The notes under the pieces: generated by a model | Told to the model about the DNA's origin: nothing | Databases searched by the model: none | What the model saw: the letters and a program-made list of their open reading frames with translations, nothing else | In this document: positions 6,564 to 26,731 of the stretch, in pieces | Position numbering within the stretch: position 1 is the stretch's first letter | Layout: every line of letters begins with the position of its first letter | Position numbers and translations under genes: made by a program | Virus record (IMG/VR): IMGVR_UViG_3300034152_000478 | Span: 86,883 to 150,882 of that record | Strand: one strand, 5' to 3' | Origin: a virus | DNA length: 64,000 nucleotides

Positions 6564-7064
6564 TCACTCCTTTGTCGTTGGTAGAGAGTTCCAAAAATCT
6601 TGAGTTTCTGCATAAATCTTGACGGCCTCCTTCAACTGTTCTGGGTTTCCACGGATAGCGTTGGGTTTTATAACAGCTTGGACCCAGATGTGAAGGTCTT
6701 CATCTTTAAGTACGTCATCTGCGAAGTATGCTACTACTGGTTTTCCACAGTAATGAGCAAAGGCAATCTCGGTTGACGTACCAAATCCAGTATGCTGATT
6801 CAATATTGCTAATAGCAAATCACAATCAGCGACCGCCCTAAGGTCTTGGCAGAGAACAGTTTTCGCCAACTCCTCCCAATCGTCATCGTAGCGTTTAGCC
6901 TCACTCAGGCTTTTGTATTGGCTGTTAATATCGAAGTCGCAGGGGTCTATTAGCTTTACTGGCAAGTCTGATAATACAGCCTTCACATTCTCCCTAATCG
7001 ACCTACCTCCATCCGGCGACTTCTCAATCGCACCGGCCAGGTAGACTTTAATCATATCGTTCAC
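6564..7064 (-). CDS. Nucleoside 2-deoxyribosyltransferase-like / nucleotide N-glycosidase
   Basis: VYLAGAI...QDLRAVADCDLLLA...GTSTEIAFA. Confidence 0.85.
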   Translation of the reverse strand: MNDMIKVYLAGAIEKSPDGGRSIRENVKAVLSDLPVKLIDPCDFDINSQYKSLSEAKRYDDDWEELAKTVLCQDLRAVADCDLLLAILNQHTGFGTSTEIAFAHYCGKPVVAYFADDVLKDEDLHIWVQAVIKPNAIRGNPEQLKEAVKIYAETQDFWNSLPTTKE

Positions 7065-9923: not shown

Positions 9924-10670
9924 TTAGCCTCCTTTAAGCTTTTTCTTGTTCACTTTCTTGGTAAGAGTCTCGATTGCGTTGGCGGCTTCTTCCTCAGTGA
10001 GGACATCCACCTTGTCGATAGCCCTTCCTACTACTTTAGATACGTCATCCAGCGTAAATAGCCCATTATCTATGAATTTTACCTTAATATGTTGCTTCTG
10101 AATCGGCGTCAAAGGCCCTGTGCGATCCCTAACCTCCTCAAGGGTGCACATTTCAATCCCCAACGCACGCCGCAATGCTCGGCCGAGAGCCCGCGTTTCC
10201 GCCAATGCTGTTGTGTACCGATGAAATCCGTCTCTGGCATTGCCAAGCCGACAATCAGCAGCGCCGCACCAGCTTTGACCATTTCTGAAATAAACAGTCG
10301 CCACCACAGTAGCACTCCATTGATTTTCTTTCTGAGGTGATTGCACCACCTCAACGTCATAGCCATTCATTCCGGCATGCTCTCTTGCGATACGAACCAG
10401 GGCATTTACAGTAATGTAGTCGCTACCGTCGTCACCCTGCTGAATGTCATCATCCCGTAGGAATTCACTATAATCTACTCTGTTTTTTGGCTCTTTCTTA
10501 ATCTCTTTAGATCGAGCCTCAAAGTCATTTTTGATTTCTTCCAAGACGGCTTTTTGTTTGGCCGGGTCGAGTTGACTGAACTTCTCAAAGTTCACAGCAA
10601 TTGTTTCCAGCCGAAGGATCGGGTCGTCGCTTTTTTCCATTTTCACCTCACCGAGTAAAAGGTAATCCAA
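9924..10670 (-). CDS. Single-strand annealing protein (Rad52/ERF-like)
   Basis: YITV..L..IA...ATVVATV...TALAETRALGRALRRALGI motif; start probably MEKSDD. Confidence 0.7.
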   Translation of the reverse strand: MDYLLLGEVKMEKSDDPILRLETIAVNFEKFSQLDPAKQKAVLEEIKNDFEARSKEIKKEPKNRVDYSEFLRDDDIQQGDDGSDYITVNALVRIAREHAGMNGYDVEVVQSPQKENQWSATVVATVYFRNGQSWCGAADCRLGNARDGFHRYTTALAETRALGRALRRALGIEMCTLEEVRDRTGPLTPIQKQHIKVKFIDNGLFTLDDVSKVVGRAIDKVDVLTEEEAANAIETLTKKVNKKKLKGG

Positions 10671-11652
10671 AAACTCCAGTTATCTCATCTGCAGTCAAAA
10701 CATAACTGCCCCTATGTCGCACAGTTCGCGAAGCAGCGTAGTTAGCATGTCGCATTGCATGATACATGCCAAGCCCATCTGCTTTATAACCACTGCGTGC
10801 TAAGGATAGCGCCAGAAATGATATTACTGTATCTCCAGCACCACAAGTATCTGCCACCTCTACTGTGTGTGCCTCTTGATGCTGTAGTAGTTCGCCTCTT
10901 TGGTATAGGTCCATACCGGCAGCCCCTTTTGTGTGTAGTAGGAATGTATCTTCCAGTTGTTCCGAGAGTTCATTGGGCTCCAGGATGGTCTTTTCCATCT
11001 CTGCCTGATTAGGGGTAACAATGGTCAAGCCCTTGATAGATCGATACGTAGGTCGCTTGGGATCAAGTATTGTGAGAACGCCGCGAGCATTGCACAAATC
11101 CACTACGGACTGTATAAAGTCATCGTCAAGAGTACCCTTGTTGTAGTCTGAAAGAATAACCAGGCGCACATTCCACTCAGTTAATAGATGGCCAATTGCT
11201 TCAATCCACTGATCACGCATTAGATCATCGACATTGATTTCATGCGGCTCCAGCTCTTTGTCGAGACGACAGACTTGCTGCCCTGCCCAAACGCGTATCT
11301 TAGTCGGAATAATGTAGTCTGGACAACCGAAGAGGCCACGATCGACAATATTTTGTTCGCGCAACATGAGGCTAAGCTGGGTTTCTTTTAGCGCCAAGTC
11401 GGGCGCTATGTGTCGTTCTTCATCCAGATATATAAAAACACACTGTTGGTCGCGGGCGATCTGGGCTGCGACATTGGCTGCTCCTCCAAGACTGTATTCG
11501 TCTTTGTTGAACAGGCAGACTGGTACCGGCGCTTCTGGACTAATGCGTGTGCTTTTGCAATCCCACTTAACGTCCAGCATGGCATCGCCGATTACCATAA
11601 TACTACTGTCCATCTTTACTCCCCTTGATTGCTCTAAACACATCGCTGACAC
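10648..11652 (-). CDS. HldA/RfaE domain I-like heptose-7-phosphate kinase (PfkB family)
   Basis: IGDAMLD, RISPEAPVPV, LGGAANVA, ILSDYNKG, DPK, TPN, DTCGAGDT; likely start 11613 (MDSSIM). Confidence 0.9.
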   Translation of the reverse strand: MSAMCLEQSRGVKMDSSIMVIGDAMLDVKWDCKSTRISPEAPVPVCLFNKDEYSLGGAANVAAQIARDQQCVFIYLDEERHIAPDLALKETQLSLMLREQNIVDRGLFGCPDYIIPTKIRVWAGQQVCRLDKELEPHEINVDDLMRDQWIEAIGHLLTEWNVRLVILSDYNKGTLDDDFIQSVVDLCNARGVLTILDPKRPTYRSIKGLTIVTPNQAEMEKTILEPNELSEQLEDTFLLHTKGAAGMDLYQRGELLQHQEAHTVEVADTCGAGDTVISFLALSLARSGYKADGLGMYHAMRHANYAASRTVRHRGSYVLTADEITGVFGLPFTR

Positions 11653-12040
11653 TGGTGCCGTTCATGTTCTCAATCATCATGATTTCATCAGCGTATCCAG
11701 CACCGGGCAGATGCGCGACCTGCGTATGTTTAAGTTCGTGTGAGTGAAAAACAATAAGGGAGTTTTCCGAATCTTTAATGCAGCGCTCAAAGAAGTCTTC
11801 AGCGTATCGGTCGAGGTCTGGATCAGAAACAATCTTAACACTATCGACACAACCCAGCTCCAACAGTATCTCACGCCGCTCCATCGCGGTTAGCGGCAGA
11901 CATCCCTTTTTCTTGATGGTGTAGTCGTCGTCATTGATTAGGACGATAAGCGTGTCACAATGTTCCCTACAAACCTGAAGAGTCTTCACATGATGTGGCA
12001 TGAGTAGGGCAAAGCAGCCCATCTTGATTCCGTATCTCAT
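11603..12040 (-). CDS. HldC/RfaE domain II-like nucleotidyltransferase (degenerate HIGH motif)
   Basis: GCFALLMPHHV, DTLIVLINDD, KKG, ERREIL..LGCVD, C-terminal TSVS. Confidence 0.7.
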   Translation of the reverse strand: MRYGIKMGCFALLMPHHVKTLQVCREHCDTLIVLINDDDYTIKKKGCLPLTAMERREILLELGCVDSVKIVSDPDLDRYAEDFFERCIKDSENSLIVFHSHELKHTQVAHLPGAGYADEIMMIENMNGTSVSDVFRAIKGSKDGQ

Positions 12041-12477
12041 CTGTTGTCAGGACTCCTGCTTTTAGTGAAGCGGTAGCTATCTGCCGGATCGTCGTGGGTA
12101 GATGCTTCGATAAAAACATTCAACTGCCCAAGACCCGTAAAACGATGAGGAACAAGATGGTTAATATACACTGCAGCAGTGCCATATTTCTCATCTAAAA
12201 CAAGAATTTGATCGGGCTTTGTTAGATCAACTCCATGAGCCTCTGGAACCAGCAAACCCTCCTCATCGCGCAACCCTGGAGGACAGACTAATTCCTCCCA
12301 GAGTTCTATCATAATAACGCCTTTAGTGACAATGAACATCTCTTTCTTCACATGATGAAAATGCACACTACACTGAGCCCCTTGATCTACGCCCATTCTT
12401 TTAACACAAAATTCCTTGTTGCGTAGATGGCTCTCATAGCCCCATACTTTATCGACGTGTTTAGTTTCAGGCATCAT
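12037..12477 (-). CDS. Cupin, sugar-isomerase-like
   Basis: VDKVWGYE, CSVHFHHVKKEMF, PHRF, EASTHD..DSYR. Confidence 0.8.
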   Translation of the reverse strand: MMPETKHVDKVWGYESHLRNKEFCVKRMGVDQGAQCSVHFHHVKKEMFIVTKGVIMIELWEELVCPPGLRDEEGLLVPEAHGVDLTKPDQILVLDEKYGTAAVYINHLVPHRFTGLGQLNVFIEASTHDDPADSYRFTKSRSPDNR

Positions 12478-13004
12478 ACAGGATAAACCTCCAGGAGGTA
12501 TTCCATGGCATCTTCAAGCGTAGGTACGACAAGCGAGGCCGCCTGCGTTACGAAGGCGTGGTCGTGGCAATTGCCCTTGTCTTCCATGATGACGAGACAT
12601 ATCTTGCCAAGCTTTTCGGCCCAGGCCAGCTCGAACATGGTTCCAATGCTGACAGTCTCAGCCTGAGCCAGATTGAAGATAACAATGTCAGCTCGCTCCA
12701 CATCACACTTATCTCGACGGTAGATAGCCTGGTCTGAGGAAATACCAAGTCGGTCACCGCCCGGCGTATTATCTTGCGGATGAGCCTTAAGCTTCCTCTT
12801 GCGACTTAGGAATTCTTTGCCACGCATGGGTGAGTATGCTTTGTAATGGCCGCTCTCTTCCAGCTCTTTCTTTACCTGCTGCCTCCAGCCAGTACAACCC
12901 TTATAGCTGAGTCCCGTAATAGGACCGGCCAGATACACCATCAATCTTGCTTCTCTATCCAGCATGTTAGCCTCCTTTAGACTATAAACAGTTTCTCTTT
13001 CCAA
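12474..13004 (-). CDS. Nucleoside 2-deoxyribosyltransferase-like protein (second copy)
   Basis: VYLAGPI, WR, SPMRGK, RDKCDVERADIV, SIGTMFELAWA. Confidence 0.85.
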   Translation of the reverse strand: MERETVYSLKEANMLDREARLMVYLAGPITGLSYKGCTGWRQQVKKELEESGHYKAYSPMRGKEFLSRKRKLKAHPQDNTPGGDRLGISSDQAIYRRDKCDVERADIVIFNLAQAETVSIGTMFELAWAEKLGKICLVIMEDKGNCHDHAFVTQAASLVVPTLEDAMEYLLEVYPV

Positions 13005-15565: not shown

Positions 15566-16117
15566 TTACGGCTTTCGCCAGGTTATACATATCACCTTGG
15601 CTATAATGTCCTTCTTCTTGATCGGCCCATAGTCGCGTGAGTCCATGGACCTTTGACGATTATCCCCCATGACCCAGTATTCATTTGATCCCAGCGTATA
15701 AGTTCTCGATCGTACTTTTAGCGGCTTGTAGTCATAAAGGTATGGCTCCTCCAGAACCTTTTCTCGTCCTCGAATTGACTGAACGATAATACCACTCTTG
15801 TTGACCGTAACAGTTTCGCCAGGCAGCCCTATTACCCGCTTGATCACATCCACATCAGGACGATTGATCGTTATAATGTCTCCTCTATCCACATTGGTTG
15901 TGAGATAAGTGACACACATGTCCCCATGATTCAAAGCAGGAAACATCGAAAAGCCTGATACCTGACAAAGACGAATCTTACATAGTATGAATATGGCCAC
16001 GGAAAGCAGGATGGCCAATCTGATCCATTGTGTGATGTTAGTTTTTGCGCGGCAGCCTTTTGAGTTGGTCGAGGATTTTTCCTGCATCATTTGCAAAGCC
16101 TCCCGTGTAACACGCAA
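15566..16117 (-). CDS. lepB: Signal peptidase I
   Basis: TM segment, SGFSMFPAL (Ser), IKRVIGLPGE (Lys), MGDNR..SMDSRDYG; start uncertain. Confidence 0.9.
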   Translation of the reverse strand: MRVTREALQMMQEKSSTNSKGCRAKTNITQWIRLAILLSVAIFILCKIRLCQVSGFSMFPALNHGDMCVTYLTTNVDRGDIITINRPDVDVIKRVIGLPGETVTVNKSGIIVQSIRGREKVLEEPYLYDYKPLKVRSRTYTLGSNEYWVMGDNRQRSMDSRDYGPIKKKDIIAKVICITWRKP

Positions 16118-16814
16118 CTGAACAACGGTTTAAATCTGCACTCCAATAAGCTTCTATCAATTGCGGCTCATGAAACAGGATAATGTTGGGTACGTTGTAT
16201 ATGAATGCCGCGTAGCCGAGTAGTCCATCGGGCGCTATAACTAAGCTGGCTCCCAGTGTGTATCGCAATGCTTCCAGCAGGGAAGTCTTGCCACGATGGT
16301 CCTCTATAATACTATCGGTCCAATTTGCTGGTCGACTACCAACTTTTTTCCCTAAAAGCACAATTTTTTTGCCGATAAATTCAGCCAGCTCATTAATACA
16401 TTTGTTTGTGAGCCCCCTTGTGCCACCTCCGCCATCGGCCACCAGGGCCACGTAGTCGCCGCGTGATACTTCTACGATCGGCATGGGTACGTCAATACAT
16501 AGAGCGTCCACGCACGTTGTGAGGGCTGTAGCGACGTTCCAGACGCGCTTAGGAACCACACTCCAGAACTGGCCATTTGGATAGCTATTGACAGTGTATT
16601 GTAAACATACACCATAGCCACGAGCAGCCTGAGAGACCAGTTGCCAATATTCTCTCAATGGCTCTTCGTATGTGCTGGCCCTACGCTCAGCCTCGAAGTG
16701 GTCGTAATAGACTCGCTGCCCAGGAGGTACGGTGCGACGGATGATGTTTAGTAGCTTGCAGCTTAAGATGACACTATCACCCAAGCCTCCGCTACCTATG
16801 AATCTCGTCTGCAT
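16038..16814 (-). CDS. Glycosyltransferase family 9 (heptosyltransferase-like)
   Basis: GGLGD at N-terminus; DHRGKTSLLEA...ASLVIAPDG...A...NVPNIILF. Confidence 0.7.
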   Translation of the reverse strand: MQTRFIGSGGLGDSVILSCKLLNIIRRTVPPGQRVYYDHFEAERRASTYEEPLREYWQLVSQAARGYGVCLQYTVNSYPNGQFWSVVPKRVWNVATALTTCVDALCIDVPMPIVEVSRGDYVALVADGGGGTRGLTNKCINELAEFIGKKIVLLGKKVGSRPANWTDSIIEDHRGKTSLLEALRYTLGASLVIAPDGLLGYAAFIYNVPNIILFHEPQLIEAYWSADLNRCSVACYTGGFANDAGKILDQLKRLPRKN

Positions 16815-17458
16815 TATTCAAAGTACTCCAACTGAGGAAAAAGCGTCGTCGGATCTTCGTGGTAATGATAATGTATCTTGCCAACCCAGTAGTGACGGAT
16901 CTCCCAAATGTGCCTGAAGCCTCTCTGTCCGTGTCCTTCCCACATGGCATTGAATACCGGATCTCGGAAAAGTTTCTGTTCAAACAGCTCTGCCATTCGC
17001 TGCAGAACGCTATATTGTGGTCGCTTTGCTATATGTAGTACGCCCTCTATCAGCCTACATAGATTCACATGGCCAAAATGTGGCTTGGCTGTCATGAATT
17101 CGAAGTCGCTACCAGGCAGCGCAAAGAAGCCTCGTTTGCATGTACGATTTATCTGCCTAATGGCCGCAGGTAGGTCTTCAATGTGCTCAAATGTGTGACT
17201 CGAATACATAAAGTCGAAGTAGTTGTCTGGATAATCACGCAGCACTGAGACTGCATCGCCCTCCAGCAACTCTCTATCTCCGACATTCAATCCACGTCTA
17301 TGTCTCTGGGCGTTCGTGTCCACCATGTCGATGATGTGCGTCGCCTTCGGATATGGCTTATCACCTCCACCAATATCCACAACACGATCATTAGGCCCAA
17401 TTCCGAAATCAATATGTAAAAGGCCAGCATATCGTCCGTCTCCTGTGAAGAGTTTCAT
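16814..17458 (-). CDS. Class I SAM-dependent methyltransferase
   Basis: VVDIGGG; FDFMYSSHTFEHIED. Confidence 0.85.
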   Translation of the reverse strand: MKLFTGDGRYAGLLHIDFGIGPNDRVVDIGGGDKPYPKATHIIDMVDTNAQRHRRGLNVGDRELLEGDAVSVLRDYPDNYFDFMYSSHTFEHIEDLPAAIRQINRTCKRGFFALPGSDFEFMTAKPHFGHVNLCRLIEGVLHIAKRPQYSVLQRMAELFEQKLFRDPVFNAMWEGHGQRGFRHIWEIRHYWVGKIHYHYHEDPTTLFPQLEYFE

Positions 17459-18324
17459 TTAACTCTCCTCGATAGAAAATCTGGCAGAGTAGGCGATTGA
17501 AAACCTGCGGCTCCTTTGTGACCTCCTCCACCTCTTGCCTTGCACATTTCTCCGCACTCAACATGCTCTTTGTTGCTATACAGTGACATTGTGTATTGGT
17601 TGCCATCAAAGACGAATGAAACGCAGAGATCATACTCGTCCAGAAGACCACCAAAAGCCAGAGAAGAAGCTCGACCGAGATTTATTGCAAACACACTGTA
17701 GTCTTCCAACTCAGTTTCAAATCCCCACGATTTCACATATTCCTTGTAAAACTGACTCTGGAATTTCTGTGCGATTTTCCCAGCTTCTATACAGTCTGTC
17801 ACTGCTTCCAGTGCTGCCTCTTGGCTGTAGTCAATAGCGAAAAGCTTGCTCCACACTTCCTCTTCGGGACCAGTTTCTCCCATCTCTATGCCCATTTTGA
17901 ATGGAATAGTATCTTCAATGGAATGAATCCAGCGATCCCAGTCATCAACGATTCTCAGCGCAAAAGGAATACTCACTTGCGGCATTATATATTGCCAGGT
18001 CAACAATGCGCCACATCCATCTTCGCTGCGTACACCAGGTAGACTGTGTTGTACGCCTTCTGGATCACCCTTAATAGCTGTCTTATGATGGTCAATCCAC
18101 GTTACATGTCGAGTTATAGCCAACAGCTTGTCCCAATCGCCGGGTTTTTGCAATGAGAAATCTATAATCCAAACTTCTTCGCCAGGCTCAATGTCATCAA
18201 ATGGCACTTCCCTATTGTAATCCATTTCCACAAACTTAATTGTGTACTCTTGGTGGCTTAAGCTTAGGCGAACCACGGCAGCAGCCGCACGTCCATCAAG
18301 ATCATTGTGATGTAGAACTATCAT
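17455..18324 (-). CDS. DHH/DHHA1 phosphoesterase
   Basis: HNDLDG, IDFS, IDHH, GGGGHKGAAGF. Confidence 0.9.
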   Translation of the reverse strand: MIVLHHNDLDGRAAAAVVRLSLSHQEYTIKFVEMDYNREVPFDDIEPGEEVWIIDFSLQKPGDWDKLLAITRHVTWIDHHKTAIKGDPEGVQHSLPGVRSEDGCGALLTWQYIMPQVSIPFALRIVDDWDRWIHSIEDTIPFKMGIEMGETGPEEEVWSKLFAIDYSQEAALEAVTDCIEAGKIAQKFQSQFYKEYVKSWGFETELEDYSVFAINLGRASSLAFGGLLDEYDLCVSFVFDGNQYTMSLYSNKEHVECGEMCKARGGGGHKGAAGFQSPTLPDFLSRRVK

Positions 18325-18652
18325 CTTGTTCCTCTCTCAGATTGTTTAGTAGATCATCCAGAATCATCTTTACTTCTTGTCCAGGTCCTTCGTTGGCTAT
18401 TATCCAGTCCCGCTGTAGGACGATGGCTCGATCACTATGGTGTCGCTTCCAAAATGCGGCATCCATTTCGAAAGGCATCCAACCAAAGCAGCGTATGCGC
18501 AACAGCCTTCCCTCCTTGAAGAAGCCTGATGGTATATCTATTTTGCCATCCTCTGGAATCTCATCACAAAATATCAATTCGCTATTAACAGGCTTCTCAA
18601 AGTTAGGTTGCACGATAGCAATGATTGCACCCGGCAATGTTCGCACAATCAT
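18302..18652 (-). CDS. Hypothetical protein
   Basis: ORF tiled in operon. Confidence 0.5.
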   Translation of the reverse strand: MIVRTLPGAIIAIVQPNFEKPVNSELIFCDEIPEDGKIDIPSGFFKEGRLLRIRCFGWMPFEMDAAFWKRHHSDRAIVLQRDWIIANEGPGQEVKMILDDLLNNLREEQDDSSTSQ

Positions 18653-19383
18653 ATGATCTTCCTCTTTTTGAGATATTTAACAACTTGCTTTACGCACTGC
18701 TCAACAGTTTTCGATTCTGTATCTAATTTAAGCTCTGCTTCATAAGGTATTTCATATGGATCATCCACGCCAGTAAAACCCATTATTTCGCCACGTCTTG
18801 CTTTGGCGTACATACCTTTCACATCGCGACGCTCACATTCTTCAACTGAGCAATCAGCATAAACCTCAATGAAGTTGTACATGCGTTGGCGTAGTTCTTC
18901 ACGTGCCTCGCGGAAAGGCGATATGAAAGTACATATAGTAACTACTCCATTGCGAGCTAAGCGCTCAGCCACAAAACGAATGCGTTGCAAGTTCTCTGCT
19001 CGATCTTCTTTTGAAAAGCCCAGATCAGATGTCAAGTCTTCCCGTACAATATCTCCATCCAGACGTTCAACTTTGACACCAGCTTGTCTTAGTCGTTCGG
19101 CTGTGGCATCTCCAACGGTAGTTTTGCCAGAACAAGGCAGTCCCGTGAACCAAAGCACACAGCCAGTATCTGTCGTCACCGAGAATAGCTTATTGAAAAC
19201 GCAGTCGTATGCAAAGTATACTCCAGTTTTTGCTGTTTCCATTAAAAGACTAAACGTCACAGCCACATGAACGCTGCCAGTCAGGATGAATGACCCAATG
19301 AATTGGAATATCAGTGCAAATATTCTGTAGAGCCCAGCTTTAGTGAGTAGAATTCTGGGCTGAAGTTTTCTCCAATTCTTCAT
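18649..19383 (-). CDS. cysC: Adenylyl-sulfate (APS) kinase with N-terminal DUF2061-like membrane domain
   Basis: WFTGLPCSGKTT, LDGDIVR, LGFSKEDR, FISPF, RDVKGMY, FTGVDDPYE; two hydrophobic helices at N-terminus. Confidence 0.93.
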   Translation of the reverse strand: MKNWRKLQPRILLTKAGLYRIFALIFQFIGSFILTGSVHVAVTFSLLMETAKTGVYFAYDCVFNKLFSVTTDTGCVLWFTGLPCSGKTTVGDATAERLRQAGVKVERLDGDIVREDLTSDLGFSKEDRAENLQRIRFVAERLARNGVVTICTFISPFREAREELRQRMYNFIEVYADCSVEECERRDVKGMYAKARRGEIMGFTGVDDPYEIPYEAELKLDTESKTVEQCVKQVVKYLKKRKII

Positions 19384-19763
19384 ATGCTATCCTCCAACTC
19401 GTCAATGATTGCCTGTACTTCACGCGGCACCTCGCTGGACAAGCCAGCCCTGATCTCAGTGCCGGAAATACGCTTGACATCTTCGGGTGCTTCCACAATG
19501 TAGTATCCGACTTGTCTGCCTATAATCACACCATCTATGTCAGGTATGATAATCACCTTTAACAACCCAGACCGCAGCTCGTCTTCATAGCAAGCTTCTA
19601 TCATTCTCTTGCGTTGGAATGCTGACCATTTTTCATGGCCGTCTCTAACTGCCACACAAACTGGCTTTTTGTTCATCAGGAAAGTGTCGATAATGTGTTT
19701 ATGTCCACAGTGGAATGGACTCCATCTGCCAATGAATAGATTATACTTCACAAACTCCCCCAT
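19380..19763 (-). CDS. Small HIGH-family nucleotidyltransferase (ATP-sulfurylase-like motifs)
   Basis: IGRWSPFHCGH and ISGTEIR motifs; overlaps cysC start. Confidence 0.7.
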   Translation of the reverse strand: MGEFVKYNLFIGRWSPFHCGHKHIIDTFLMNKKPVCVAVRDGHEKWSAFQRKRMIEACYEDELRSGLLKVIIIPDIDGVIIGRQVGYYIVEAPEDVKRISGTEIRAGLSSEVPREVQAIIDELEDSI

Positions 19764-20659
19764 ACGATCCCATTGTGTGCTAAATCAGGCACGTCTAAAA
19801 TCCTAATCTCGTGGCACTGATTCACTTTCTTGATTTCAGTTGTCCCAGTTACTCTTAGTTGATGGTTCAGCTCAGTGATGTGAATTGAATGGCTTCCTAC
19901 GCCTCTTACTACTCGTGGACAGTGCGTCGATGAGCCGACCAGTATTCTGTCCTTGCTAATAGCAAGTCCCCTTGTATATTTGCAATCCCCCTTATAGACC
20001 AACTCTTTGGCTCTTGCTCCACGTCGTTTCTGCATATTGTAGCGTCGTATCATAGACTTTGGCGAATGACAGAAGTACATAAAGTCGCCAACGATCGCCA
20101 CATTGTGCAATTGTGAGCCGACATGGACATTGTCAAGCACCTTAGTGAACCCAACATCGACACATTTAATGTTGCTTGGAAACTGGTAATTATGCTCGAC
20201 CACCCAGAAGTTTCCATCTTGTTTCCAGATTGAATTCAGGTGATTGTTCTTGTGGTTTTTATATCCTTTCTTGTCGTTCCATTTTCTGGCAAATCCCCAG
20301 GTGTATGGCTTAGCAAAAACGCCGCTTGTCCGCATGCGTTCTATGCGACCACGATACGTATTTACTATGTACAGCATTGAAGTTTCTGGATCATAGTAAG
20401 CCTGATGTACGCCATGGATCTTTGTCGGATATGTAGCTTCTACTTTGAATTTTTTGTTGAGTATAGCCACGGTGTCTGTTAGTTTTCTGTCACCGCTTCT
20501 TTGGCAGACGAACAAGAAATCTTCACTCCAAGATACACCAAAACAGCTATCCTTAAAAACCTTTTTGTACCTTCCTTTATGCACCAAAAATAGACCGCAG
20601 GGTGTTGCTACCAGGTATCTCAAATTTGAGGCTGCCATATCAATACACCTATTCCGCAC
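19748..20659 (-). CDS. Beta-propeller protein 1 (DUF4915/ASST-like)
   Basis: FGVSW, VHQA, NHLNSI, LHNV, TRGLA, DLAHNG. Confidence 0.6.
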   Translation of the reverse strand: MRNRCIDMAASNLRYLVATPCGLFLVHKGRYKKVFKDSCFGVSWSEDFLFVCQRSGDRKLTDTVAILNKKFKVEATYPTKIHGVHQAYYDPETSMLYIVNTYRGRIERMRTSGVFAKPYTWGFARKWNDKKGYKNHKNNHLNSIWKQDGNFWVVEHNYQFPSNIKCVDVGFTKVLDNVHVGSQLHNVAIVGDFMYFCHSPKSMIRRYNMQKRRGARAKELVYKGDCKYTRGLAISKDRILVGSSTHCPRVVRGVGSHSIHITELNHQLRVTGTTEIKKVNQCHEIRILDVPDLAHNGIVWGSL

Positions 20660-21318
20660 CCTACTTTTCCATCAGGTCGCCTATGGCTGATTTCTCTTGT
20701 CTCAAACTGTCTCTTCACTCCCTCCCAGACTCTCCAGACGCGGAACTTCGGCCCGTGCTTATTCTTGATATCATGGAACACGATAATACCGCCAGGTCTG
20801 ACAAAACTTCGGTACATACACCAATCCTTGCGGCAGCCAGCTTCCGTATGATCACCATCTATAAACAACAAATCAAGCTGACGACACTTTAGTGCAGTCT
20901 CTACGGCATCTTGGCTCTCAATCTTATGAGAATCACCTATTATGATTTCATGTTTGAAAGTCGGCTTATGTCTCGGAATTGCTGACACAACACTTTGACC
21001 CGTGCCTTCCCACTGTTTGGGAGTCGGCATATCCATCCCAATACCAAAAACATTCTCGCTTTGCCAGCTCAACACATTGCCTATCAGCACAAAGTTGGCA
21101 CCATAGGCCAGCCCTATTTCCATGAAGTTAATCTGCTCAGTGCGATCTTTTAGATGGTTAGTGGCAAAATCCAGGAAGTCTACTATCTCCTTTTTGCGCT
21201 GCAATGAAGACTGAATCTTGCCTGTGACTTTCTTGAAATACTCAAGACGATCATATTCTGCAGCTATTAACTTCTTGTTCACTTGTGTGCTCCGAACGGA
21301 ATGCCGTTGTGCGCCCAA
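20620..21318 (-). CDS. Methyltransf_24-family SAM methyltransferase
   Basis: MEIGLAYGA, GDSH, DLLFIDGDH, RPGGIIVFHDI. Confidence 0.85.
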   Translation of the reverse strand: MGAQRHSVRSTQVNKKLIAAEYDRLEYFKKVTGKIQSSLQRKKEIVDFLDFATNHLKDRTEQINFMEIGLAYGANFVLIGNVLSWQSENVFGIGMDMPTPKQWEGTGQSVVSAIPRHKPTFKHEIIIGDSHKIESQDAVETALKCRQLDLLFIDGDHTEAGCRKDWCMYRSFVRPGGIIVFHDIKNKHGPKFRVWRVWEGVKRQFETREISHRRPDGKVGCGIGVLIWQPQI

Positions 21319-22145
21319 TCCAATTCCGAAATGAGTCGCAGACAGAATACCTGGTTCACTTGTGGTAATCTGATTACGTCTCTGATTTCCAGCGTCTCCT
21401 GGTCGACAATGGTCACATATCCAGCTCGATCATCTTTCCTCTCTTGTGGGGTGCCCCAGCATGATTGGCCTATCACGAAGAAGTCTGAGCCCACTGCGAA
21501 CCCACGAGGATAATCCTTGAAGTGTGGTTTGGGCAAATGAAACTCCTTGCGGCCGACTATTTGCTTGGTCGCCATGTCCATTTGAATCAGCGTGCGGTCC
21601 AATGACATTAGGCTGTACAGCATGCCGTCTCTAATGAAGATGTTGTGACCCTCGTTTTCAAGCTGGTAGGTATTGATTGGATGTTCAAGATCACTGTCAT
21701 AGAACTCTTGCACCCTGCAGTTGAAGTCACGCTTCCCATTCTGCTCACCGACATAGATACACTCGCCATATCTGTAGATCGAATTAATATGATTCCAGTT
21801 GTCGGATCGCCCGGTGTAGTTGAAGCTGGCAAATTCGTGCACCGCTGGGTCCCAAATCTCTACTCGGTTGCGGTCGGTATTAGTCATATAAAGTAGCTCG
21901 TGCTTGTCATCATACAGTGCTTGATGAACACGACACACGCTCTTTGCGGGCACTTTGTTAAGTAGCCGCAGACTGTGGTCAAACAGCCAAATTTCCGTAT
22001 GTAGCGTTGGATGTCGATGACAAACATACAGAGTGTATTCGTCCCAGCTAATGCCGTAGCAGGCTCCTCGCTGGACGAGGTGCACATTCTGACCGTCCAC
22101 GAAAAAGAGGCCGCGTGCTGTTGTTACCAGTAGTTTAATACTCAT
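21279..22145 (-). CDS. Beta-propeller protein 2
   Basis: YGISW, VHQA, NHINSI, GHNI, PRGFA, DWAHNG; paralog of 19748..20659. Confidence 0.6.
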   Translation of the reverse strand: MSIKLLVTTARGLFFVDGQNVHLVQRGACYGISWDEYTLYVCHRHPTLHTEIWLFDHSLRLLNKVPAKSVCRVHQALYDDKHELLYMTNTDRNRVEIWDPAVHEFASFNYTGRSDNWNHINSIYRYGECIYVGEQNGKRDFNCRVQEFYDSDLEHPINTYQLENEGHNIFIRDGMLYSLMSLDRTLIQMDMATKQIVGRKEFHLPKPHFKDYPRGFAVGSDFFVIGQSCWGTPQERKDDRAGYVTIVDQETLEIRDVIRLPQVNQVFCLRLISELDWAHNGIPFGAHK

Positions 22146-23029
22146 AGTACTATTCCGTTATGTGCCAGGTCAGGTTCTCCCAAGGCTCTCACTTCGTATA
22201 CTTGGTTGCCTTTGGGGATACAGACTGAGCCAATCTCTTTGAACTCTTCGTCCATCTTAATGATCCAGGCGTCAAATAGCTCCATGCGCTTCTCTCTGCC
22301 ACAGTGCATTGAAGCTCCCATTAGGAAGTAGCCGTCGCAGCGAGCAAGTCCCCTGGAATATGTACGCGGAAAGGCATCTTCAAAGCTTCTGTTTTGTACA
22401 ATACGATCTTCGACCATAGAGTACTTGGCTATCTCACTCGTCAATGATACGGTTGTATATATGAATTCGCCTTCAACGTACACATTGTGAATCTGACTTG
22501 CAACCACCCATGCTTGTGGACGACCCACTATCTCAGGAGGCATCTTAATTACCCTGGAAGGATGATGTTTCTTGTTGTGTTCACAGGACCACCAGCATTC
22601 GCCATCAAACCATACAGAGTTAATATGGTTGTAGTCGCAGCCTGCTACTGGGGTCCAGTTATTAACCAGTATCTTATTGCCAGCAATATCAAAAAAGTCA
22701 ACACGATTCTGGTGTGTGTTGGTTACGGCGATTGTCTTGGTTTTTGGATCATAGTGTGCTTGATGATTGTCTTTCACTTGTGGCAAATGCACTTCATCCA
22801 TCACGCCGAAATCTTCAGGGTGCAAGGAGACCATTTTAGTTTGAGTATTTTGATTTATCCGCTGAAAAGCAAAGATTCGAGTCTTGCTCCAGGTTAATCC
22901 GTAGACATGTCCCTCATAGACCAACTCACAGTCTCTACCATCTATGTAAAAGATGCCCCTTGGTGTCGTGGCTAAGCAGCGCATCATATTAAATACTCCC
23001 TCCAGTTGTCTCTGATTTCCGGCAACCAA
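22142..23029 (-). CDS. Beta-propeller protein 3
   Basis: YGLTW, NHQA, NHINSV, IHNV, SRGLA, DLAHNG; likely start MMRCL. Confidence 0.6.
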   Translation of the reverse strand: MVAGNQRQLEGVFNMMRCLATTPRGIFYIDGRDCELVYEGHVYGLTWSKTRIFAFQRINQNTQTKMVSLHPEDFGVMDEVHLPQVKDNHQAHYDPKTKTIAVTNTHQNRVDFFDIAGNKILVNNWTPVAGCDYNHINSVWFDGECWWSCEHNKKHHPSRVIKMPPEIVGRPQAWVVASQIHNVYVEGEFIYTTVSLTSEIAKYSMVEDRIVQNRSFEDAFPRTYSRGLARCDGYFLMGASMHCGREKRMELFDAWIIKMDEEFKEIGSVCIPKGNQVYEVRALGEPDLAHNGIVL

Positions 23030-23835
23030 TCATCTGTAAAGTCCACAAGTTCGTTGGGTAGTGCGACAGGCTGATTTCTCAACGGCTCTGTTTGTCCTTC
23101 AGCAAATCCATCTATTGTATTGCCCTGTGATGGCCAGCGTAAGAATCTCTCGTTGTACCATTTCGTTAGGCTTGGTCTATCAAACGTGAGCACTTTATCT
23201 CTTATAAGCCGGGGATGTTTTACCCAGCACAAGTGAGTCATTTGCGAACGCTTCCTTGACAGCGAGACACGCCTATCCTTTATGACATCTTTACCATCAA
23301 CCAGAAAATGATTAGACGCAGTATAACGCCCGCCTTTCTGAAAGCGGATAAACCGTCCCAGGTGCGACGCAGGGAACCACCAGCGAAGATTGTAGGCATA
23401 CTGATATTCTCCAATCTGTACGTGTTGAACCTCGTCATACATGCGGAAAATGCGCAAGATATCCCAGAGTCCCTCGCCCCCATAGAATTCGTCAGTGTCC
23501 ATAAGATGAATCACATCACCAGGCTCTATGTCTGAAAATTCCAGCAGGTAGTTCTTGTTAATGCCATGTTGAGCCTCTCTACTGTGCCCACGCATTCTTT
23601 CTATGGGAATAGGCGGTGCTATAAATATCTGATCAGGATACTTGGCCTCCATTTCCTTCAGTACAGCCATGGTGTTGTCGGTTGAGCGTTCTGGAAGATT
23701 CCGGTTGATAGCAAGCGATCCTTCTGCAATCAGAATTCTGTCGATATGCTCTATCCGATTCTCTATTACTCGTCTTGCCAGGTCTTCTTCATTGTAGACT
23801 TCCATTAAGCCTATAACACGCATATTATCCTCCAA
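22984..23835 (-). CDS. Glycosyltransferase family 2-like
   Basis: VYNEED, STDNT, MDTDEFY (DxD). Confidence 0.75.
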   Translation of the reverse strand: MEDNMRVIGLMEVYNEEDLARRVIENRIEHIDRILIAEGSLAINRNLPERSTDNTMAVLKEMEAKYPDQIFIAPPIPIERMRGHSREAQHGINKNYLLEFSDIEPGDVIHLMDTDEFYGGEGLWDILRIFRMYDEVQHVQIGEYQYAYNLRWWFPASHLGRFIRFQKGGRYTASNHFLVDGKDVIKDRRVSLSRKRSQMTHLCWVKHPRLIRDKVLTFDRPSLTKWYNERFLRWPSQGNTIDGFAEGQTEPLRNQPVALPNELVDFTDDWLPEIRDNWREYLI

Positions 23836-24427
23836 CGTACACTACACCAAAACCATGAAAGCCAGTGGTATGCTTACAGCGCTTACGGATTTTCTCCCAG
23901 GCTTTTTTCGGCTTGTTGTTAACATCATCGAACACTATCAGTCCACCCTTTCGGACCAATGGCCTATACATGGTATAATCTTCCAGACAGCCCTCAACAC
24001 TGTGATTACCGTCTATGAACAGGAGATCAATCCCACGACCCTGTAGATCATCCTTGAGTTTATTTAGCGTTTTCTTTTCGTGTGAGTCGCCCTCAATAAT
24101 TCCCCATAGGAACTGTGGATTTAAGGCTGCGACTGCTTGGTCTGGGGGTAGCGTAGTGTGCTTATCATATGTCATATTGAAGATATCTATGCCAATTGCC
24201 ACTACTGTTTTGCCAGCTTGCAATAGACAGTTTCCAATCAACACAAAGCTGCCACCCATGTGAACGCCTATCTCTACAAAGACAACTTCTTTCTGTTCCT
24301 TGAAGTGCTGTAAGATAAAATCAACCAGCCTGCAGGCACCATGCTGTGTTTGCATAATGACTTCTCGGCGATCCTTACGCCCCTTGAGCAGTCGATTGAG
24401 TTCTTCCCTGATTTCTTTCTCGTTCAT
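23825..24427 (-). CDS. Methyltransf_24-family SAM methyltransferase
   Basis: VEIGVHMGGS, GDSH, DLLFIDGNH, KGGLIVFDD. Confidence 0.85.
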   Translation of the reverse strand: MNEKEIREELNRLLKGRKDRREVIMQTQHGACRLVDFILQHFKEQKEVVFVEIGVHMGGSFVLIGNCLLQAGKTVVAIGIDIFNMTYDKHTTLPPDQAVAALNPQFLWGIIEGDSHEKKTLNKLKDDLQGRGIDLLFIDGNHSVEGCLEDYTMYRPLVRKGGLIVFDDVNNKPKKAWEKIRKRCKHTTGFHGFGVVYVGG

Positions 24428-25056
24428 GGCTTACTAAAGAAAGTGTCTCCCTGACATTTGCCCGTTGCTTTATAGCCGTATGGGCGCAGCAGGGCTAAGG
24501 CTTCTTCAGCCCCCACCTGATGGGTTTCGATGCAGAATACTCGCGGCAAGACCGGACAGTCCTGAATACCACGAAGCGCTGCCAGCTCATTGCCTTCGAT
24601 ATCCAAAACAAACAAGTCGACTTCTGTTATTCCATGTCTTTCTATTAGTGTCTTGTAGGTTATCGTGTTTACTTTATGGCGTTCTAATCGAAGCTCACCC
24701 CTCTTAAGTGTGTCCCATATCTCCCACTTGTGCTTGAAGACAATCGACCCTCGTCCTGTCATTTTGTTTTTGTTGTCTGATTCATTCAGAGGCAGCATGA
24801 ATTCTACTTCTTCGTCGTCAGCATCACTCAGCGCATACTTAAGATTGAGACAGTTAGGCCGGTTCTTTTTCAGAGCACTGAAGCAATAGGGATTACATTC
24901 AATATTAATGCCGTGCCACTCGTTCTTCGCCTCAAACCAGCGACAGGTGCTGATAAACTTTCCATCATTGGCACCACACTCTATGAAAGTGCCACCTTTA
25001 TGCTTGCGTAGCCAAGGGAATCTCTTCAAAAGGGCTTCAGTCAGCTTTGTTTTCAT
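24424..25056 (-). CDS. FkbM-family methyltransferase
   Basis: FIECGANDG, IECNP, LDIEGNEL. Confidence 0.88.
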   Translation of the reverse strand: MKTKLTEALLKRFPWLRKHKGGTFIECGANDGKFISTCRWFEAKNEWHGINIECNPYCFSALKKNRPNCLNLKYALSDADDEEVEFMLPLNESDNKNKMTGRGSIVFKHKWEIWDTLKRGELRLERHKVNTITYKTLIERHGITEVDLFVLDIEGNELAALRGIQDCPVLPRVFCIETHQVGAEEALALLRPYGYKATGKCQGDTFFSKP

Positions 25057-25987
25057 TGCGATAGCGATTCTTTACCCAGTCTTGTTCTGGTCGATAGAAT
25101 GTGTTCAAAGCCTGGACCACCTGTAAGATGGCAGGGTCAAGCCCCAGCTCTTGACAACATGCCTCCAGCGCCCCAATGTCTTTCATGAAGCAGCTCCCAC
25201 CGGCACCACGCAGGCCGTCTGGTCCTGGCACGTAGGTGTGCGAAGGACCAATGCGATCATCGAGAGCAATGCCTCGCCGCACTACATCGTAATTACATCC
25301 AAGCATGCCAGCGATATCGTAATAGAAGTTGAAGAGCATTAGCTTGGTAAACAATGTGACATTAGATCCATATTTGATTAGCTCGGCCGCCGTGTTAATG
25401 CAAAGAATCAGGCGATCATCAAAATTACAGACATGTGGATTGGTGTTGATTCTGCGTAGGACATCCACCAGTCTCGTGTCATGCGCTTCATCGCTCCCAA
25501 TTACAACCCTTGTGGCATCCATTAGTGTTCCAACAGGATCAGCTTCGGTCAAGAATTCCGGGCTGAAGTGTAAATGTAGGCCACGAAATTGTGTAGCAAA
25601 TTTACTTGTTGTGCCTGGTGGCACCGTAGACTTGATGCACACAGGTAGGCGTCCATTCGCTTCTATCGCGTGCAGAATGTTCAGCTTATTGAGAACATCC
25701 TTGACAATAGATAGATTGGCTTTCTCACATCGTCCATCTTCACAGTAAGCCAGTGGCGGAGTTGGCACACATACCAGTACGATATCTGCACGTTCTACTA
25801 AATGATTCAGCGAAGGAACCGATAAAGGCAAATTCCATCCTGGAAATCTGCGTCCAAAATTAGGCTCTATATCATAGATAATGACGTTATGATATCCTCG
25901 ATTTCTTAATGCCACATAGTGGGCAGCTCCCACAAAACCGCCACCAACAATTCCAATAACTGGCCCAGGGAAATCTTCGCAGCCCAT
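25037..25987 (-). CDS. ugd: UDP-glucose/GDP-mannose dehydrogenase family (lacks C-terminal domain)
   Basis: GGGFVG, CVPTP, KSTVPPG, SPEFL, AELIKY..N, GAGGSCFMKD. Confidence 0.9.
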   Translation of the reverse strand: MGCEDFPGPVIGIVGGGFVGAAHYVALRNRGYHNVIIYDIEPNFGRRFPGWNLPLSVPSLNHLVERADIVLVCVPTPPLAYCEDGRCEKANLSIVKDVLNKLNILHAIEANGRLPVCIKSTVPPGTTSKFATQFRGLHLHFSPEFLTEADPVGTLMDATRVVIGSDEAHDTRLVDVLRRINTNPHVCNFDDRLILCINTAAELIKYGSNVTLFTKLMLFNFYYDIAGMLGCNYDVVRRGIALDDRIGPSHTYVPGPDGLRGAGGSCFMKDIGALEACCQELGLDPAILQVVQALNTFYRPEQDWVKNRYRNENKAD

Positions 25988-25990
25988 AGT

Positions 25991-26731
25991 TCACCTCACC
26001 ATAATGCGATCAAAGCGTACAACACCTACGCCACGGTCATGTCCGTTGCCAAATACCCAGTGTTTATAGAAATGTGAAATGCGGTTCCACAACATTACGC
26101 CTTTATTAACATAGCAGCCAGTAACATCATGAACAGCCACAAGGCCACCACTTTTAACCATGCCTGTATAGTAGTCCCAATCGTGATTGCAAGTTGGGCA
26201 ATCGTGTCCGCCATCAATGTAAAGCAAGTCAAGTCTCCGCCCTCCTCTAAGCGCTGCGATCTGTGCACCGTGTATGGTTTCCTTCTTGGTAGAATCACCC
26301 TTGACAAAATCCCAGGTGAACTTAGGCCCAAGATTCTTAATGCACTCATCAGCCCCCATCAGTTTCTGGTAGGCCCAGCCACGTCCAGGTCGCTCTGGAG
26401 TCGGTATCTCTGGCATGTCGACGGCAATCCCGTGCACCTTGCCAAAGGCTTTCATTAACATATTGCCCATCAAAACAAAGTTGCCGCCACGATTAGTACC
26501 TATCTCCATAAAGACAATCTCGGAAGGATACTGATGGCGAAAGTAATCTATCATGAATTGCGTGCATGCCAGGGCTTCTCCTTTGCGCTGCATAATACAG
26601 TCAGCAGGAGGACATTTGTTACCCGTGAACTTCACGATCCGTTCATACTCAGCGGTAATATCCGGGATCATGCTTCCTTTGTTGATAATGCGCTTGATCA
26701 GCGCGTCACTTTGCTCTCTGGTGAAGTCCAT
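25991..26731 (-). CDS. Methyltransf_24-family SAM methyltransferase
   Basis: MEIGTNRGG, GDS, DLLYIDGGH, SGGLVAVHD. Confidence 0.85.
   Translation of the reverse strand: MDFTREQSDALIKRIINKGSMIPDITAEYERIVKFTGNKCPPADCIMQRKGEALACTQFMIDYFRHQYPSEIVFMEIGTNRGGNFVLMGNMLMKAFGKVHGIAVDMPEIPTPERPGRGWAYQKLMGADECIKNLGPKFTWDFVKGDSTKKETIHGAQIAALRGGRRLDLLYIDGGHDCPTCNHDWDYYTGMVKSGGLVAVHDVTGCYVNKGVMLWNRISHFYKHWVFGNGHDRGVGVVRFDRIMVR

Follow-up and report, generated by a model that had tools for sequence, protein, structure and literature searches.

A phage gene string with a candidate sulfate-activation pair and three propeller paralogues that may transfer sulfate

Enzymes that make 3'-phosphoadenosine 5'-phosphosulfate (PAPS), phosphatases of the NrnA type and aryl-sulfate sulfotransferases (ASSTs) are among the closest described counterparts of the genes considered here, which form a thirteen-gene string within a 64,000-nucleotide stretch (the window; bases 86,883–150,882) of the 150,882-bp IMG/VR virus record IMGVR_UViG_3300034152_000478, an uncultured phage of ~151 kb whose record is 100% complete according to CheckV. 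In PAPS synthases and Sat-CysC fusions (PAPSS1, 1X6V; the Aquifex protein, 2GKS), an adenylyltransferase with an HxGH motif is coupled or fused to an adenosine 5'-phosphosulfate (APS) kinase. NrnA-type DHH/DHHA1 enzymes such as B. subtilis NrnA and M. tuberculosis CnpB have phosphatase activity on pAp (3'-phosphoadenosine 5'-phosphate, PAP). ASSTs, among them EcAST (AssT, 3ELQ) and Cpz4 (9KF6), take aryl sulfates as donor and not PAPS. EcAST follows a ping-pong mechanism through sulfo-His436, and Cpz4 acts on a sugar hydroxyl, which it sulfates as part of a biosynthetic pathway (PMC13426309; bioRxiv 10.64898/2026.10.08.757636). Comparison of the phage string with these systems tentatively suggests a glycan-tailoring operon that has its own supply of activated sulfate and in which the propellers would transfer the sulfate.

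The nucleotidyltransferase and its APS kinase

The genes on which the argument turns are the following, with coordinates counted from the first base of the window:

17455..18324, minus strand: DHH/DHHA1 phosphoesterase, 289 aa, candidate PAP phosphatase (phrog_4771 'DHH phosphoesterase', 4e-43)
18649..19383, minus strand: APS kinase with an N-terminal DUF2061 hydrophobic domain (PF01583, 2e-59; TIGR00455 above its cut-off)
19380..19763, minus strand: 127-aa HxGH/ISGT nucleotidyltransferase (NT), candidate minimal ATP sulfurylase (54–60% identity to NT-APS-kinase fusions)
19748..20659, minus strand: propeller paralogue 1, 303 aa, or 296 aa from the ATG at 20638 (26% identity to paralogue 2)
21279..22145, minus strand: propeller paralogue 2, 288 aa, modelled with AlphaFold2 (AF2; pLDDT 87.3, six blades)
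22142..23029, minus strand: propeller paralogue 3, 295 aa, likely start at the ATG at 22987 with GGAGG upstream (assigned by paralogy, motifs kept)

The APS kinase is a member of the CysC family: PF01583 covers residues 74–221 (200.5 bits, cut-off 21.1), TIGR00455 reaches 215.6 bits (cut-off 138.7), and the P-loop, LDGD.VR, FISPF and KARRGEI..FTG motifs are all present. DUF2061 matches residues 14–60, and the N-terminus contains a single hydrophobic stretch at about residues 11–47, which is long enough for two spans. Overlaps of 4 and 16 nt link the NT, cysC and propeller 1, which is indicative of translational coupling.

The NT has only weak CTP_transf_like and nicotinamide mononucleotide (NMN) adenylyltransferase (NMNAT) profile matches, and its GRWSPFHCGH and ISGTEIR motifs correspond to the GRxxPxHxGH and ISxT of NadM and the archaeal NMNATs. 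The closest solved sequences are NMNATs as well (profile E 2e-6 for 2QJT and 4e-6 for 4YP7), no ATP sulfurylase being recovered in the same PDB profile search. The modelled fold is nearest to the NMNAT MJ0541 (1F9A; VIA Z 10.1, 24% identity), and ATP sulfurylases score Z 7.0 (Thermus, 1V47) and 6.9 (2GKS); the acceptor-side loop of the model, residues 81–110, has low confidence. Against the NCBIfam NMNAT equivalogs the protein reaches 31 bits, where the cut-offs are at least 127. It is ~45 residues shorter than the NMNATs overall, and ~25 of these are lost between IPDI and ISGT, a segment which we take to be the site of the NMN pocket, and which has ~20 aa in the NT, with an invariant Arg83-x-x-Gly-Tyr, compared with ~45 in 4YP7. 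PF01747 (Sat) has no match in this genome at E≤1.

The company that the NT keeps in other viruses is informative. IMG/VR contains 156 confirmed NT matches, from which neighbourhoods were counted in 79 retrieved viral loci and family matches, by hidden Markov model (HMM), in 49 NT-bearing records. In 73 of the 79 loci the NT adjoins a gene of the APS kinase family or is fused to it, and an APS_kinase match over the Pfam cut-off is present in 48 of the 49 records. Standalone NT homologues have 117–142 aa, and homologues of 282–304 aa, with 54–60% identity, carry the NT domain fused to an APS kinase. Furthermore, Sulfotransfer_3 exceeds its cut-off in 24 of the 49 NT-bearing records (30 at E≤0.01), mostly 1–2 kb from the kinase, and phmmer identifies a classical sulfotransferase in 27 NT loci. 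A canonical ATP sulfurylase is present in none of 50 records, and where checked, the sub-threshold PF01747 signal (10–14 bits, HxxH region) falls inside the mini-NT itself. No canonical sulfurylase was seen beside the phage cassettes; the 576-aa protein that recurs there is a tail sheath protein, and a 315-aa neighbour is without a PDB relative. No mini-NT was found in the cultured phages of INPHARED.

The fusion or adjacency of NT and kinase, together with the nearby classical sulfotransferases, suggests that the two form a PAPS-making unit which serves a sulfotransferase; this is the economical reading of the sequences and a well-supported one. The PAPS supply that a first-pass annotation of this DNA had proposed, made up of a mini sulfurylase-like protein and an APS kinase, gains comparative support from the fusions, the 73/79 pairing and the sulfotransferases close by. 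The label 'ATP-sulfurylase-like' fares less evenly, since it agrees with the pairing and disagrees with a sequence and fold that are NMNAT-like and not Sat-like. It is somewhat probable that the NT works like an ATP sulfurylase.

As in the PAPS synthases and Sat-CysC fusions, an HxGH adenylyltransferase is coupled to an APS kinase here, and the Sat catalytic domain may share the fold of the NT; the phage transferase differs in its size (~120 aa), in being NMNAT-like and in having no PF01747 match over the cut-off, and its activity at this locus is that of a candidate. The phage cassettes of NT, APS kinase and sulfotransferase share with this locus the same NT and APS kinase families and a DUF2061 companion. 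However, DUF2061 is fused to the full-length APS kinase here, a classical sulfotransferase is missing, and three propellers and a DHH gene adjoin the pair.

Some features of the cassettes elsewhere deserve mention in their own right. In 18 of 62 distinct NT loci (for example, L062:12125–13855) the sulfotransferase/APS-kinase/mini-NT cassette and a tail sheath gene are a few kb apart, which places the cassette within the virion module. A 471-aa methyltransferase-sulfotransferase fusion (L054:3733–5148), which matches both the FkbM protein of the window and phage sulfotransferases, is encoded beside a kinase-NT pair. The Campylobacter O-methyl phosphoramidate (MeOPN) pathway, in which the APS-kinase-like Cj1415 presumably acts together with a nucleotidyltransferase, was considered as a model and set aside, as the Pfam scan of the cluster and its flanking genes shows no glutamine kinase or amidohydrolase.

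A user of PAPS is harder to recognise. Throughout the 150,882-bp genome there is no Sulfotransfer_1/2/3 and no phage-type sulfotransferase (searched with Pfam and with an HMM built from phage sulfotransferases), no match to the ASST families PF05935/PF14269 at E≤1, and no PAPS reductase. The first-pass annotation saw no classical P-loop sulfotransferase, which holds beyond the window for the entire, complete genome. As far as the sequence can be read, this genome has no recognised alternative consumer of PAPS or route for it, and the propellers stand where the cassettes elsewhere have the classical sulfotransferase.

The propeller family

None of the three ~290-aa propeller paralogues has a Pfam or PHROG match or a significant NCBIfam match. 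The AF2 model of paralogue 2 is a six-bladed propeller of 24 strands (pLDDT 87.3, pTM 0.88), and paralogues 1 and 3, which have 26–30% identity and keep all the motifs, are predicted to be six-bladed propellers as well; paralogue 1 retains HQA, NHLNSIW, EHN, HNV, RGLA, IR and DLAHNGI. The proteins (281–296 aa) consist of the propeller domain only, with no signal peptide, hydrophobic N-terminus or fibre domains. Fold searches with Foldseek and VIA place generic WD40, YWTD and designer propellers at the top, with YWTD leading at Z 25.7.

An exhaustive profile search revealed that the paralogues belong to an unnamed family of 1332 clusters at E≤1e-3, of which 680 remain at E≤1e-10, and each of the ten clusters sampled for origin is metagenomic. 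Two other family members have been found in IMG/VR so far, and none in the cultured phages of INPHARED. When 185,579 species genomes were scanned for motifs, with coverage of ~12–14% of the motif variants, 0 members were recovered (33 unconfirmed pattern matches and 4 chance matches); because of this coverage, and because bacterial members of the family are listed in the Atlas, absence from cells is not claimed. Among 106 members with a mean identity of ~27%, H74, N121, R214, G215, R270 and H279 are invariant (numbering of paralogue 2), and Q75, H119, H167, N168, R236, D276 and N280 are nearly so; all three paralogues of the window keep both sets. Judged by this pattern of conservation, the family looks like an enzyme.

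The best profile-profile match of the propellers is the SGL/SMP-30 family (hhalign Prob 97.5, E 7.6e-12, 234 columns), although the propellers of the window have no Pfam SGL match. In this alignment the invariant residues fall on central positions, including those of the Glu, Asn, Asn and Asp which we take to be the metal ligands at the propeller centre of SMP30/gluconolactonase-type enzymes. Both Asn positions are kept (N121 and N168), whereas the presumed metal-binding Glu is replaced by Tyr/Phe30 and the Asp by R214, and the propellers gain a His on three successive blades. Because Glu gives way to Tyr and Asp to Arg at the centre, a metal-free, cationic, anion-binding pocket is predicted. 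The clustering of the propeller His, Asn and Arg residues in an active site, which the first-pass annotation had named as a test, is supported, at the level of alignment, by their match to the central SGL positions.

For the comparison with ASSTs, ASST-family proteins from Bacteroidota genomes were used, onto which the catalytic residues of the E. coli enzyme, namely His252, His356, Arg374 and the sulfo-carrying His436, were mapped. The hhalign result (Prob 84.5, E 7e-6; reversed control E 0.24) pairs H74-Q with His252-Glu and D..H119.N121-S with D..His356.Asn358-Ser, and the C-terminal half alone gives E 0.07 against ASST. A specific homology to ASSTs was nevertheless rejected on the SGL control: SGL matches the propellers better, ASST and SGL match each other equally at E 7e-6, with the register shifted by one blade relative to the direct propeller-ASST alignment, and the likeness to ASSTs is therefore one of superfamily level plus one motif. 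Similarly, EcAST 3ELQ superposes on the propeller with Z 20.7 (root mean square deviation 3.0, 258 residues, 15% identity) and a second ASST match with Z 20.8 (254 residues, 14% identity; EcAST and Cpz4 together span Z 20.7–20.8), and numerous unrelated propellers with six blades do better than both (up to Z 25.7). The comparison with AssT and DUF4915 suggested by the first-pass annotation has thus confirmed the six-bladed fold and yielded no specific ASST homology. What is shared with the ASSTs is this fold, a His-lined centre and, in the direct alignment, the D..H.NS motif around His356 and the H-E/Q around His252. The phage proteins differ from them in lacking the N-terminal beta-sandwich, the signal peptide and the long insertions (288 aa compared with at least 570), and in adding the invariant or nearly invariant Arg214, Arg236 and Arg270 and a C-terminal DxAHNG tail. 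The 106-member propeller profile retrieves no ASST from the PDB at E≤10.

DUF4915/TIGR03032, a group of uncharacterised bacterial propellers, is likely a distant relative, as several family members carry a sub-threshold PF16261 match (best E 8.6e-7, at most 28.9 bits, cut-off 35) and PF16261 also occurs in part of the nearest Atlas clusters; by contrast, the three propellers of the window have no PF16261 match. Literature searches on DUF4915/TIGR03032 and on phage sulfotransferases gave no result.

The genomic contexts of the family comprise about 13 independent ones, which is a small sample. In 9 of the ~13 the propeller has a methyltransferase as neighbour or fusion partner, P0121 being such a fusion, and GT2 glycosyltransferases are frequent. 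Sulfation genes accompany the propeller in 4 of the ~13, namely in the window, in L005, where an APS kinase without a mini-NT lies 1.5 kb away, in L006/L003, where a classical sulfotransferase gene overlaps the propeller gene, and in P0033, where the propeller is fused to a Sulfotransfer_3 domain with apparently intact PAPS-binding motifs. For a rare function this linkage is far above chance, and within ~13 contexts it is repeated, not obligatory. A scan for related loci that started from one alignment confirmed 0 candidates. The 576-aa protein encoded at L006:250–1980, whose gene overlaps the propeller gene, has a classical sulfotransferase domain at its N-terminus and a long C-terminal region, which is GT9/TPR-like by eye.

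A possible sulfation pathway and competing explanations

The phosphoesterase gene lies one gene from cysC and overlaps both of its neighbours, a 116-aa open reading frame (ORF) and a methyltransferase gene. Its product reads HHNDLDG, IDHH and GGGGH, i.e. it contains the catalytic motifs of both DHH and DHHA1, and scores 19.5 bits with Pfam DHH, below the cut-off of 28.1. It resembles the NrnA-type enzymes in its DHH motifs, its DHHA1 GGGH motif and a similar size (~290–310 aa), and it differs from them in the sub-threshold Pfam score, in having no solved sequence relative (phmmer found none in the PDB) and in the lack of co-occurrence with PAPS modules elsewhere. A role as PAP phosphatase would fit the position of the gene and is possible, with some doubt.

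In the favoured explanation, the 127-aa NT, derived from an NMNAT, would adenylylate sulfate to form APS, and the DUF2061-anchored APS kinase, which by family membership is expected to be active, would convert APS into PAPS by phosphorylation at the membrane. At least one of the cytoplasmic, DUF4915-like propellers would then pass the sulfuryl group to sugar hydroxyls, possibly via a sulfo-histidine as in the aryl-sulfate sulfotransferases; this step is the weakest link. The donor could be PAPS itself or a PAPS-charged carrier. The acceptor, a host surface glycan or virion glycoprotein, would carry a glycan made by the neighbouring glycosyltransferases (GTs) and O-methylated by five methyltransferases, and the DHH/DHHA1 enzyme would clear the inhibitory by-product PAP. 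We regard sulfotransferase activity of the propellers as possible, with some doubt. The most specific version, in which they are a new cytoplasmic sulfotransferase class that moves sulfate from PAPS to His to sugar hydroxyl, replaces the P-loop enzyme and is fed by an NMNAT-derived mini sulfurylase, appears unlikely. The donor of Cpz4 is reportedly a pyrone sulfated by the PAPS-dependent Cpz8; a relay of this type would account for the fusions of propeller and sulfotransferase, but not for a genome that, like this one, has no sulfotransferase.

Several observations weigh against sulfate transfer by the propellers. We know of no propeller enzyme that uses PAPS, the likeness to ASSTs (E 7e-6) is weaker than that to SGL (E 7.6e-12) and ambiguous in register by one blade, and no protein of this genome matches Pfam ASST or DUF4915. 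Three of the four sulfation contexts have another sulfotransferase or an incomplete set of donor genes, and a fused or adjacent classical sulfotransferase makes the propeller unnecessary as one. The most constant neighbours of the propellers are methyltransferases and GT2s (9/~13) and not sulfation genes (4/~13). Two other phages, G050 (100% complete) and G205 (84%), have a propeller and no APS kinase or sulfotransferase, and the propeller is found in 0 of the 49 NT-bearing records. The co-occurrence with cysC expected by the first-pass annotation is therefore mixed, as it is seen in the window and L005 and fails in these phages and records. On the supply side, the closest sequences and folds of the NT are archaeal NMNATs, for which reason sequence and model comparison place it outside the Sat family, and no DHH gene lies within 10 kb of the NT in any of the 79 loci, which does not favour the recycling step. 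Of the supply-use-recycle loop that had been proposed, the supply stands, use by the propellers is possible and recycling gains nothing from co-occurrence, so the loop as a whole is to be taken with reserve.

The main rival is another reaction coupled to methylation, in which the propellers, as partners of the methyltransferases, would act on anionic sugars or sugar phosphates as a hydrolase or esterase, as a lyase or C5-epimerase on uronates, or as a phosphoryl transferase that supplies the substrate for methylation, PAPS being left to a host sulfotransferase or an unrecognised phage protein. The constancy of the methyltransferase neighbours, with the fusion in P0121, the SGL/SMP-30 lactonases as the closest profile, the Ugd-like gene within the operon and the two propeller phages without sulfation genes all agree with it, and the His/Arg/Asn/Tyr centre would fit a carboxylate or phosphate as well. 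Yet it has to accommodate the replacement of the SGL metal ligands Glu and Asp, a frequency of sulfation genes beside propellers far beyond that expected for a rare function, and a PAPS module without a phage-encoded user in a complete genome, and we consider it doubtful. An explanation without any propeller chemistry, in which they are lectin-like adaptors or virion parts that are decorated by tailoring enzymes or recruit them, appears highly improbable. Six-bladed propellers (YWTD, NHL, Kelch) are common binding modules and head the fold lists, and fusion to a methyltransferase or sulfotransferase could signify a targeting domain; however, His, Asn, Arg and Asp at the central catalytic positions are invariant despite ~27% identity, and such a polar centre favours a fixed chemistry over a variable binding surface. 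Furthermore, the propeller genes lie among early and metabolic genes and not tail genes, and their products are without signal peptide or fibre domains.

A different kind of explanation separates the NT and CysC, with or without the DHH enzyme, from the glycan genes, either as an auxiliary module for PAPS or sulfur assimilation in the host or, if the NT is an NMN adenylyltransferase, as part of NAD salvage. It is consistent with NMNATs as the best sequence and fold matches of the NT, with the absence of a Sat-family match over the cut-off, with the abundance of nucleotide-metabolism genes in the region and with the frequency of DHH enzymes in phage DNA metabolism (phrog_4771). Against this, the NT is shorter than NMNATs, including in the presumed NMN pocket, where it has the invariant Arg83; it is tied to APS-kinase-family genes and classical sulfotransferases in dozens of phages, the genome has no PAPS reductase, and the three genes are embedded, through overlapping ORFs, between propeller and methyltransferase genes. 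This separation of the two gene sets is, in our view, very unlikely.

If the propellers transfer sulfate, a nameless family of more than 1300 clusters would gain a function and PAPS-dependent sulfation a second, unrelated fold; if the 127-aa NT makes APS, many uncultured phages would use a new and very small route of sulfate activation. Should either be true, phages would tailor glycans by sulfation and O-methylation with a donor supply of their own, with a bearing on host recognition, superinfection exclusion and biocatalytic sulfation, and direct use of PAPS by the propellers, together with APS synthesis by the NT, would mean two unrecognised enzyme activities in one operon. If neither is true, the locus would be a tidy phage glycan-methylation operon beside a PAPS module.

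Glycan genes and genomic setting

The thirteen-gene string proposed in the first-pass annotation is present in full on the minus strand. Adjacent ORFs overlap by 1–46 nt or are spaced by 0–3 nt, and the thirteen genes therefore form one operon-like string. The remaining members and a flanking gene are:

16814..17458, minus strand: flanking class I methyltransferase (Methyltransf_11/23), outside the range first noted and in the same operon-like string (PF08241, 2.1e-8; 4 nt overlap with the DHH gene)
18302..18652, minus strand: 116-aa ORF between cysC and the DHH gene (no Pfam, NCBIfam or PHROG match)
20620..21318, minus strand: S-adenosylmethionine (SAM) methyltransferase, Methyltransf_24, CmcI-like (PF13578, 2.5e-12)
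22984..23835, minus strand: GT-like protein with a DTD motif (weak GT17, E 0.0026)
23825..24427, minus strand: O-methyltransferase, Methyltransf_24 / rhamnosyl O-methyltransferase-CmcI-like (PF13578, 1.9e-16; PF04989, 1.4e-9)
24424..25056, minus strand: FkbM-family methyltransferase (PF05050, 1.5e-17)
25037..25987, minus strand: nucleotide-sugar dehydrogenase-like (Ugd-like) protein without the C-terminal UDP-binding domain (PF03721 and PF00984 only)
25991..26731, minus strand: SAM methyltransferase, Methyltransf_24 (PF13578, 1.5e-9)

The string thus contains three Methyltransf_24 proteins and one FkbM protein, and the fifth methyltransferase flanks it. The gene at 22984–23835 had been labelled GT2; the gene is there, and in place of that family it has the weak GT17 match. 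Homologues of this GT-like protein adjoin propellers in L007 and L011. The 116-aa ORF, with no usable Atlas match and a model pLDDT of 0.38, could be non-coding or an orphan.

The Ugd-like protein has the N-terminal and central domains of its family and a GGSC motif (residue 263) at the position of the catalytic Cys, and it ends at residue 316, where the next ORF encodes the FkbM protein; it scores 126.4 bits with TIGR03026, whose cut-off is 189.8. The name Ugd is therefore supported by PF03721, PF00984 and GGSC and weakened by the missing C-terminal domain, and because of this missing UDP-binding domain the earlier suggestion of a uronic-acid-containing glycan is weak.

Almost all genes of the window lie on the minus strand and are tightly packed, and the region has no relatives at the DNA level among 50,697 deposited phage genomes. 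The neighbourhood includes genes of replication and nucleotide metabolism, i.e. primase, DnaB, RecA, PhoH, ThyX, dCMP deaminase, a GMP-reductase/IMPDH-family protein, a UDG-family protein, an HD protein and two nucleoside deoxyribosyltransferase-like proteins, and also the sugar genes for a PfkB kinase, a cytidylyltransferase-like protein, a cupin and a GT2.

Further observations in the window concern individual genes and composition. The minus-strand ORF at 15566–16117, between thyX and GT-like genes, encodes 183 aa with a hydrophobic N-terminus and GDNR..S.DSRDYGPI and is signal peptidase I (S26)-like by eye, and that at 16038–16814 (minus strand) encodes a 258-aa protein without a Pfam match whose GSGGLGDSV start is GT9 heptosyltransferase-like by eye. 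At 10648–12477 (minus strand), the PfkB-family kinase, the cytidylyltransferase-like and the cupin/isomerase-like genes form an overlapping trio that resembles a split HldE-type sugar-nucleotide module. The nucleoside 2-deoxyribosyltransferase-like genes at 6564–7064 and 12474–13004 (minus strand) are two in one phage, and together with ThyX, the dCMP deaminase and the GMP-reductase/IMPDH-family, UDG-family and HD proteins they make up an unusually rich set for nucleotide remodelling. Finally, G+C dips to 0.373 at 56001–58000, compared with ~0.46–0.55 around it.

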